NCBI RefSeq assembly: GCF_055900595.2
Contig: NZ_CM148325.1
Length of the DNA: 64,000 nt
Strand: one strand, 5' to 3'
Below, piece after piece: positions 19,374 to 21,658 of this stretch (its first letter is position 1; every line of letters starts with the position of its first letter). Both the position numbers and the translations under genes were made by a program. A model generated the notes under the pieces. That model made no database searches and had not been told where the DNA came from. It saw nothing but the letters and a program-made list of their open reading frames with translations.

Positions 19374-19431
19374 TTTTGCCTCGATTTCTTTTCTATTACC
19401 GCTTACCTTAACGATTCAGCAACCCCGCTTA

Positions 19432-19445
19432 TTGATGTAAATCAA
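19432..19445 (-). promoter_or_regulatory. FNR box TTGAT-N4-ATCAA in the nirB promoter
   Basis: TTGATGTAAATCAA found about 59-72 nt upstream of the nirB start codon; matches the known FNR-activated nir promoter. Confidence 0.8.
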
Positions 19446-19458
19446 ATTCACCTTTATA

Positions 19459-19634: not shown

Positions 19635-20816
19635 TTAATGAGAGGTCAGGGTGTTATGCTGACGGTGACGGCTGACGAAACCTAACAGGAAGCACATCAC
19701 AAAGACGACAGCGTACAGACCGTTTGCCGTCAGCAGCGCCGCCTTTGGACCGCTATGTTCAACAATCGGGCCGGTAACGACAAAGGTCAGCATGGTACCG
19801 ATGGTCCCGCAGGTCAGGACAAAGTTAACCAGTTTTGGTGACGGTACTTTGGTTTGCTGTGAACCCAGGGTGATGATGGTGGTATAGATCGCGCTGGAGA
19901 AGAAGCCCAGGGCGAGAATTGACCACGCCATATGTGCCGGTGTTCCGGTGTTAAAGACGTACATCAGAATCGCAGCCAGACCGGCCAGTACGGTCAGAAT
20001 ACGTTGCAAATCAAAGAAGCGAAGAATAAAGCTGAACGCCCACATGCCGACCATATATGACATCCAGAAGTTACTCACCAGCGTACCTGCGTCGTTCAGG
20101 CTCATGCCCAGGCCTTTGGCATACTCTGGTACCCAGGAGATAAAACCTAACTGACCGAGGATGTAGCACAGCGCTGCAATTGAGAGAAACAGTACGCCGA
20201 TGCCCCATTTTTCTTTCGCTACTGGAGCATCCGTTTTTGGCGCATGTTTGCCCAGTGCCGGAAACTCACAGCCGAAGGTCAGAATAAAAATAGCGACGTA
20301 AACCAGCCCGATGCAGGCATAAACCCAGTACCACTCAATGCTGCGCGCCAGCAGAAACGCGGCGATCATTGGGAAAATCATCCCTGCCATACTGAAGAAG
20401 GAGTCGGTAAATAACAGGCGAGAACCGCGCTGACGCCCTTCATACATTTGTGTTATCAGGAATGTACCAATCGACATGGTGATGCCGCTGACCACCCCGA
20501 GAATGAACATCGCTGCCGAGAAAAGCGCCAGGCTATGGCTGAACATCAAACCGGCAACCGCCAGCACCATCAGGAGAAAGCCAAAACGTAACTGCGTTTT
20601 CAACGGGACGATTTCCATCAGCCAGGCATTGAGGAAGATAGAGATTAAAATGCCAGCATTGAGGAAGGTGAAGGTGTTACTCATACTGGAAACAGGCAGA
20701 TTGAAATAATCGGCGATATTTCCCATCACCATCCCGGTGACAATAACCAACGCACCCGTCAGTGCGTAGGAGAGAAAGCTAATCCATGTGAGCTTGATGC
20801 GATTGCTGTTAGTCAT
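19635..20816 (-). CDS. tsgA: MFS-type membrane transporter
   Basis: 393-aa hydrophobic ORF; divergent from ppiA. Confidence 0.85.
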
Positions 20817-20878
20817 GATTGGCCTGCGTTCAAAAATAAAATGGCATAGCGGGATATGCCGCGAGCGGGCGATTTTAG

Positions 20879-20952
20879 GTGATTTTGTGATCTGTTTAAA
20901 TGTTTTATTGCAATCGGTTGCTAAATTGCATTTTAAGGGTGATTTTGATCAC
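20879..20952. promoter_or_regulatory. tsgA/ppiA divergent control region with two CRP-like GTGATTTTG motifs
   Basis: GTGATTTTGTGATC at 20879-20892 and palindromic GTGATTTTGATCAC at 20939-20952; ppiA is known to be CRP/CytR controlled. Confidence 0.5.
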
Positions 20953-21076
20953 GGAATAAAAAGTGATCGTCAGGTTACATATATTTCAGATACGTAAAAT
21001 TAGGTAAAGGGATGGCCTTGTTCTTGAAGGCTATTTAGAATCTCTTCACTTGCTTTTTTTCTGCTCTGTTTGTTAA

Positions 21077-21658
<582 letters not shown>

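Follow-up and report, generated by a model that had tools for sequence, protein, structure and literature searches.

Tandem CRP sites around a putative CytR operator upstream of ppiA (rot), and their possible bearing on the divergent gene tsgA

Introduction

Two related words lie close together between the divergent genes tsgA and ppiA, and they raise the question of which protein they bind, in which register and at what spacing, and which of the two genes this binding would serve. In an initial annotation of this DNA—a stretch of 64,000 nucleotides, referred to below as the window—the words had been read as two CRP-like motifs about 60 bp apart, and CRP/CytR control of ppiA had been named as their context. 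The literature bears this context out (PMC3454398, PMC3105977, PMC4287617). The protein-folding gene ppiA belongs to the known targets of the sugar-sensing regulator CRP, among which genomic SELEX recovered it (PMC3105977). It is an experimentally proven member of the regulon of the repressor CytR (Sernova and Gelfand 2012, PMC3454398), and its CytR-dependent, cytidine-relieved repression is credited to Norregaard-Madsen et al. (1994) where PMC3454398 cites that study. The region is an already known regulatory region, the feature is real and its attribution is correct; the corrections to the earlier reading concern the register of the first word and the functional spacing of the sites. With a probability of roughly 0.9, the motifs indicate where the two tandem cAMP-CRP sites lie in the regulatory region of E. 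coli ppiA (rot), with CytR repression exerted between them. The sequences, scores and conservation behind this reading come from the present analysis, in vivo CRP occupancy has been published, and activation and repression are taken from the literature.

The locus and the repeated word

The two genes are arranged as follows.

19635-20816, minus strand: tsgA, ATG at 20816
21086-21658, plus strand: ppiA, ATG at 21086

The window is part of an E. coli chromosome, and the gap between the two genes spans 269 bp (20817-21085). A 501-base stretch around it was found in 5425 of 5426 complete E. coli genomes, with tsgA and ppiA as the annotated neighbours, and is 100% identical to annotated E. coli chromosomes; a search of Rfam returned no known RNA family in the gap. 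Both words are located inside this gap, as originally described: motif A (GTGATTTTGTGATC, 20879-20892) and motif B (GTGATTTTGATCAC, 20939-20952), whose starts are exactly 60 bp apart. Motif B had been called palindromic, and its arms, GTGAT and ATCAC, confirm the description. Motif A carries a direct repeat of GTGAT, 8 bp apart, and no palindrome.

Common to both motifs is the 9-mer GTGATTTTG, which occurs three times in the 64 kb against an expectation of 0.71, a count that was reached in 4 of 100 shuffles. This excess, together with the presence of two of the three copies in one 269-bp gap, could be taken to mean that the 9-mer is itself the functional unit, either as the word of a non-CRP factor or as a recent local duplication at 60-bp spacing. 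We consider this very improbable. The 9-mer is not itself conserved: its first copy is confined to Escherichia and altered in a metagenomic E. coli-type contig, where motif A reads GCGATTTTG, and its second copy gives way to GTGATTCTG at motif B in another E. coli allele. Moreover, the similarity between the two motif copies stops at the 9-mer, and the feature that has been conserved is a CRP half-site pattern at 52-53 bp.

A strong proximal CRP site

A plain consensus search proved uninformative, since TGTGA-N6-TCACA with two mismatches matched the window 30 times against 27.8 expected, which is no excess over chance, and a weighted matrix was therefore needed. A symmetrised CRP matrix of 16 positions was built from 106 ChIP-seq sites of ETEC H10407 (PMC4287617, Table 1), with the ppiA site itself excluded from the training set. 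The matrix selects the following site, which includes motif B.

20938-20953, no strand assigned: proximal CRP site GGTGATTTTGATCACG, centre 20945.5

With 14.32 bits, this 16-mer ranks first among the 63,985 positions of the window and exceeds the median score of the training sites (13.1 bits); the chance rate per position is about 5e-6 at 14.3 bits and about 3e-4 at 8.1 bits. The site that MEME reports under the ETEC CRP ChIP-seq peak for ppiA/tsgA is exactly the proximal 16-mer (PMC4287617). CRP occupancy is thus available from the literature, with site-level evidence for motif B only. Across 23 species, the TGA-N6-TCAC core of motif B is invariant or at least 90% conserved.

Three further high-ranking or word-like matches deserve mention in their own right. 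The sequence ATTGATGTAAATCAAA (19431-19446) reaches 11.4 bits on the CRP matrix and is of the FNR type (TTGAT-N4-ATCAA); we take it to be the FNR site of the nirB promoter. A published start site, FWD 3492009 (PMC4681348), agrees with a placement 41.5 nt downstream of the centre of this site, to one or two bases when the coordinate offset is considered. The sequence CGTGATTTCGGTTACG (21509-21524), which lies within the ppiA coding sequence and scores 10.2 bits, is probably a chance match. A third GTGATC word at 20963-68 was tried as a CRP site and rejected, with a best score of at most 0.5 bits and no conservation.

A weak distal site in a shifted register

Motif A requires a re-reading, because only its second GTGA constitutes a CRP half-site. 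Its two halves fall into separate features.

20886-20901, no strand assigned: weak distal CRP site TGTGATCTGTTTAAAT, centre 20893.5, using only the second GTGA of motif A
20879-20882, plus strand: first GTGA of motif A, an Escherichia-specific copy outside the CRP site

In the register first proposed (GGTGATTTTGTGATCT, 20878-20893, centre 20885.5), motif A scores -1.21 bits, and all other registers over motif A are negative except TGTGATCTGTTTAAAT, which reaches 8.12 bits, rank 25 in the window and about the 10th percentile of the ChIP-validated sites. A consensus match within the validated range is accordingly found for motif B and for the distal register, and not for the register of motif A. 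Of the two CRP-like motifs originally proposed, motif B thus stands at 14.3 bits and motif A, as first aligned, falls at -1.2 bits. Matrix scoring, the check that had been suggested together with the proposal, places motif B above threshold and the shifted distal register at 8.1 bits; below-threshold scores, which had been named as counter-evidence, were not obtained.

The distal site possesses one good half only, and MEME did not call it under the ETEC ChIP-seq peak (PMC4287617). Its GTGA (20887-20890) is invariant across the 23 species. Its right half, TTAAAT, coincides with the putative -35 element of tsgA, so that the conservation of the distal site may be owed in part to the tsgA promoter and not to CRP. 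The first GTGA is present only in Escherichia (E. coli and E. albertii) in the 23-species alignment, and is changed to GCGA in the E. coli-type metagenomic contig.

Spacing of the sites and conservation

The starts of the two words are 60 bp apart, as the initial annotation had it, but the CRP centres are separated by 52 bp in the window and by 53 bp in K-12 MG1655. The K-12 gap differs from that of the window by one extra A only (TTTTAAGAGGTGA). This base, which is absent from the window at 20937/20938, between TTTTAAG and GGTGATTTT, falls between the CytR-type repeats and the proximal site, and its absence accounts for a spacing of 52 rather than 53 bp. The exact 61-mer of the window occurs in 15 of 5394 complete E. 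coli genomes and the K-12 form in 4611 of 5399; the spacing of 52 bp is also found in E. albertii, Salmonella, and two Pantoea genomes. A textbook CRP/CytR cassette can evidently be recovered by a reader who has only the sequence, and a repeated word can mislead that reader on register and spacing (60 bp versus 52-53 bp).

For comparison across species, ppiA loci were collected from 80 species, in 28 of which tsgA is the divergent neighbour, and 23 gaps were aligned. The CRP half-sites are conserved in these 23 genomes, and Salmonella keeps both sites in the same two-site layout. Of 24 orthologous regions, 16 have their best upstream CRP-like match at a distance of exactly 52-53 bp from the proximal site. 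Conservation across Enterobacteriaceae and Erwiniaceae extends to the second GTGA, to the TGA/TCAC core of motif B and to the spacing of 52-53 bp.

The closest known system is the E. coli ppiA (rot) region of Norregaard-Madsen et al. (1994, Mol Microbiol 14:989), which is the same locus in K-12 sequence apart from one base and likewise has a CRP site on either side of CytR-type repeats upstream of ppiA; in contrast to K-12, the strain of the window lacks one A and spaces the sites at 52 rather than 53 bp. In the 1994 study, ppiA is reported to have four promoters; cAMP-CRP, bound to a pair of sites with a spacing of 53 bp, activates the three upstream ones, and CytR represses them from a position between the pair. 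The K-12 spacing agrees with this description, and the sites in the window are matched to those of 1994 only through the reported 53 bp. In its two CRP sites about 52-53 bp apart, the region corresponds to a CytR/CRP cassette.

A putative CytR operator in the spacer

Between the two CRP sites lies a group of repeats.

20907-20932, no strand assigned: putative CytR operator, composed of ATTGCAAT (20907-14), GTTGCTAA (20917-24) and ATTGCATT (20925-32)

The putative operator contains an inverted TGCAA-N4-TTGCT, and with three TTGCA/TGCAA pentamers the 36-bp spacer falls within the top 0.05% of all stretches of that length in the 64 kb. Half-sites of the TTGCA/GTTGCATT type, following the CytR consensus forms quoted in PMC3454398, are thus found between the CRP sites, one of them (ATTGCATT) ending 5 bp short of the proximal 16-mer. 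A search for the CytR octamer GTTGCATT with one mismatch revealed no enrichment in the window, and a single match is not significant, which fits the known weakness of CytR operators (PMC3454398). In the alignment of 23 gaps, Escherichia alone shows the repeats in recognisable form, with Citrobacter keeping part of them. This narrow distribution is consistent with the observation of Sernova and Gelfand (2012) that the CRP-CytR-CRP cassette can be made out in the nearest relatives of E. coli (PMC3454398).

The arrangement resembles the cassettes of deoP2, udp, nupG and cdd, in which tandem CRP sites about five helical turns apart likewise enclose weak TTGCA-type half-sites, one of these being positioned within a few bp of a CRP site. 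Despite this likeness, two differences exist. In CytR cassettes, CRP is usually stronger at the distal operator, with the exception of cdd (PMC3454398), whereas at ppiA the proximal site scores higher; and ppiA, unlike the genes typical of such cassettes, has no role in nucleoside use.

Further support for protein binding comes from Dam sites. GATC is present at 20889-92, 20947-50 and 20965-68, inside three GTGATC words within 80 bp, and both CRP sites contain one (20889-92 in the distal and 20947-50 in the proximal site). A stably unmethylated GATC near ppiA is ascribed to Hale et al. (1994) in PMC11741368, and the latter paper describes dam-dependent protein occupancy at the upstream Dam sites of ppiA. 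Given the GATC in both CRP sites, we count these two observations in favour of the CRP/CytR explanation.

Signals of other regulators also converge on this region, with about 20907-20925 of the CytR operator drawing PurR, GalR and FNR signals. The main binder might accordingly be another regulator of the CRP/FNR or LacI family: an FNR ChIP-seq peak centred near 20907 has been assigned to ppiA, PurR ChIP-chip reports a weak region without a motif covering ppiA/tsgA, and an in-silico GalR site at K-12 position 3492468 corresponds to about 20916 here. Such a binder nevertheless appears improbable. The half-sites are GTGA/TCAC, the CRP type, and not the TTGA/TCAA of FNR, and the FNR paper treats ppiA as co-activated by CRP and assigns FNR a site of its own, apart from that of CRP. 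The signals for PurR and GalR, which are either weak or purely computational, fall on the CytR operator, an element that resembles the sites of other LacI-family proteins.

ppiA promoters and the CpxR box

How the tandem CRP sites and CytR would act on ppiA depends on the position of its promoters, of which the one nearest to the gene is the best anchored.

21036-21048, plus strand: downstream ppiA promoter, -10 TAGAAT at 21036-41, start at 21048 +/-1

Published start coordinates refer to U00096.2 and were converted with an offset of 1976-1977 nt. The start site RVS 3490358 (U00096.2), which is flagged in Table S2 of PMC4681348 as overlapping RegulonDB, falls 38 +/-1 nt ahead of the ppiA start codon (ATG), at 21048 +/-1, seven nt past TAGAAT. 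The hexamer is held in TTTAGAATC (21034-42), which is invariant in the 23 species. We take this promoter to be the CRP-independent P4.

Three -10-like hexamers upstream of it are candidates for CRP-dependent promoters.

20922-27, plus strand: TAAATT, predicted -10, start near 20934, distal CRP site at about -41
20975-85, plus strand: TTACAT/TATATT, predicted -10, start near 20987-92, proximal CRP site at -41.5 to -46.5
20995-21000, plus strand: TAAAAT, predicted -10, start near 21007, proximal CRP site at -61.5

We infer these three promoters from the geometry of the hexamers, and the resulting set is consistent with the arrangement reported in 1994; two of them share a geometry similar to that of class II CRP promoters (centre at -41.5). 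In published start-site data, only the downstream start was found and none of the three CRP-dependent ones, and the supplements of PMC3415461, PMC4782308 and PMC10301672 hold no start site for this locus among the rows listed.

A mechanism can be proposed on this basis, in which the assignment of CRP sites to promoters, like any effect on tsgA, is conjectural. At high cAMP, CRP at both sites would activate the three overlapping upstream promoters, the distal site presumably acting in class II fashion on the start near 20934, and the proximal site in class II fashion on the start near 20987-92 and in class I fashion on that near 21007. CytR bound to the TTGCA-type repeats of the spacer would contact both CRP dimers and cancel the activation, and cytidine would free CytR from its operator. 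The fourth, downstream promoter (TAGAAT, start 21048) would remain independent of CRP and would lie below a conserved CpxR box.

20994-21008, plus strand: CpxR box GTAAAATTAGGTAAA, GTAAA-N5-GTAAA

This box is independent of the CRP/CytR module and lies outside the interval covered by the initial annotation. Its pentamers are invariant apart from one base in the 23 species, and across Enterobacterales it holds a position of about -90 relative to the ppiA ATG, also where tsgA and the CRP pair are missing. It thereby resembles other CpxR-activated envelope-stress promoters and the box of Yersinia ppiA, with an invariant GTAAA-N5-GTAAA about 85-90 nt 5' of the ppiA ATG. The orthologous Yersinia box has been footprinted with DNase and tested by site-directed mutagenesis (PMC3158067). 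The gene ppiA is among the first three Cpx-regulated genes, and what is found here is a CpxR box upstream of a Cpx-regulated promoter.

A separate block, GGTTACATATATTTC (20973-20987, consensus GTTACATnTGTTTCA), shows conservation among Enterobacteriaceae and remains beside ppiA in the absence of tsgA; a CRP-dependent promoter may have its -10 region here, or another factor may bind.

The tsgA promoter and possible control by CRP

The proposal that the two-site layout could drive both genes depends on the tsgA promoter, for which a candidate is interlocked with the distal CRP site.

20872-20900, minus strand: putative tsgA core promoter, -35 TTTAAA (20900..20895), 17-bp spacer, -10 TAAAAT (20877..20872)

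TTTAAA-17-TAAAAT was the sole promoter-like match in a consensus scan of 20700-21200. Four positions of the -10 are invariant in the 23 species, and conservation of the AAA in TTTAAA reaches at least 90%. A gap of 8 nt separates the distal CRP 16-mer from the putative -10, and one half of the 16-mer lies inside the promoter spacer; its centre is at about -28.5 from the putative tsgA start, over the -35 and the spacer, and is therefore not in an activating position for tsgA. The proximal site lies at about -80.5 from the same start in the window and at about -81.5 in K-12.

That the CRP module is mainly, or also, a control element of tsgA, coupling the divergent genes, is a possibility to which we assign odds well short of even. 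CRP at the strong site (-80.5/-81.5) would then activate tsgA in class I fashion, and the weak distal site (about -28.5), when occupied, would hinder RNA polymerase over the -35 and the spacer. Among the CRP targets predicted by Shimada et al. is the gene divergent from ppiA (PMC3105977), so that CRP control of tsgA has already been proposed as a prediction. Conservation covers the -10 of tsgA and the 8 nt between it and the distal site. Four Enterobacteriaceae genomes that lack tsgA beside ppiA have also lost the CRP pair while the CpxR box and the -10 remain, and in Edwardsiella the distance of the best CRP-like site is maintained relative to tsgA and not relative to ppiA. The joint loss of the CRP pair and tsgA could, however, just mark the endpoint of a deletion.

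Where tsgA resides away from ppiA, a CRP site is found 20-21 nt 5' of a conserved TAGGAT/TAGCAT, with its centre at -40.5/-41.5 (four loci); it scores 14.5-15.6 bits in Photobacterium damselae, P. leiognathi and P. toruni and 8.9 bits in Hafnia paralvei. In Hafnia, the gene upstream of tsgA is co-directional, and the CRP site can therefore only serve tsgA. These Photobacterium and Hafnia orthologues share the class II geometry, in contrast to tsgA in the window, where the distal site is only 8 nt from the putative -10 and centred at about -28.5. CRP sites were absent upstream of two TsgA relatives at about 40% identity and of a Shewanella locus; fragment-based TsgA look-ups contributed ppiA-adjacent loci and one contig with only 47 nt upstream.

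Several points weigh against a role of the module in tsgA control. Neither a tsgA start site, in published start-site data, nor CRP-dependent expression of tsgA was found in the literature searched. The position -28.5 is no known activating position, and -80.5/-81.5 is one or two bases off the usual -82.5. CRP-like pairs also occur upstream of ppiA in Hafnia and Yersinia, where they adjoin sugar operons. On balance, a two-site layout that drives both genes is plausible, and CRP control of tsgA, judged from sequence comparison, appears plausible and probably ancestral, and unproven in E. coli. Somewhat more doubtful is a fuller version, in which tsgA, encoding an uncharacterised MFS transporter, would be an ancestral CRP-regulon gene whose core promoter became interlocked with the ppiA distal site in Enterobacteriaceae, such that CRP, and thereby CytR, would couple both genes, the distal site acting from about -28.5. 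Knowing whether CRP regulates tsgA would offer a first lead on the physiology of this conserved transporter, whose substrate is unknown.

Two minor observations concern the surroundings of these genes. The tsgA leader contains a terminator-like hairpin, GGCAUAUCCCGCUAUGCC (20843-20860, minus strand), which is followed in E. coli by a U-rich run; four of the five pairs of its stem show two-sided changes across species, with 78% of cells paired, and RNAalifold found no consensus structure in the leader, whose folding energy does not stand out (z = -0.27). In Hafnia, the divergent neighbour of ppiA belongs to a cellobiose-type PTS operon, and in Yersinia aldovae it encodes a GH4 glycosidase; a perfect palindrome, TGAGAGCGCTCTCA, with CRP-like sites 51-52 bp apart, is present in the upstream regions of three loci (L027, 2175-2500; L041, 2149-2500; and L037 from Y. 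artesiana, 2101-2500).
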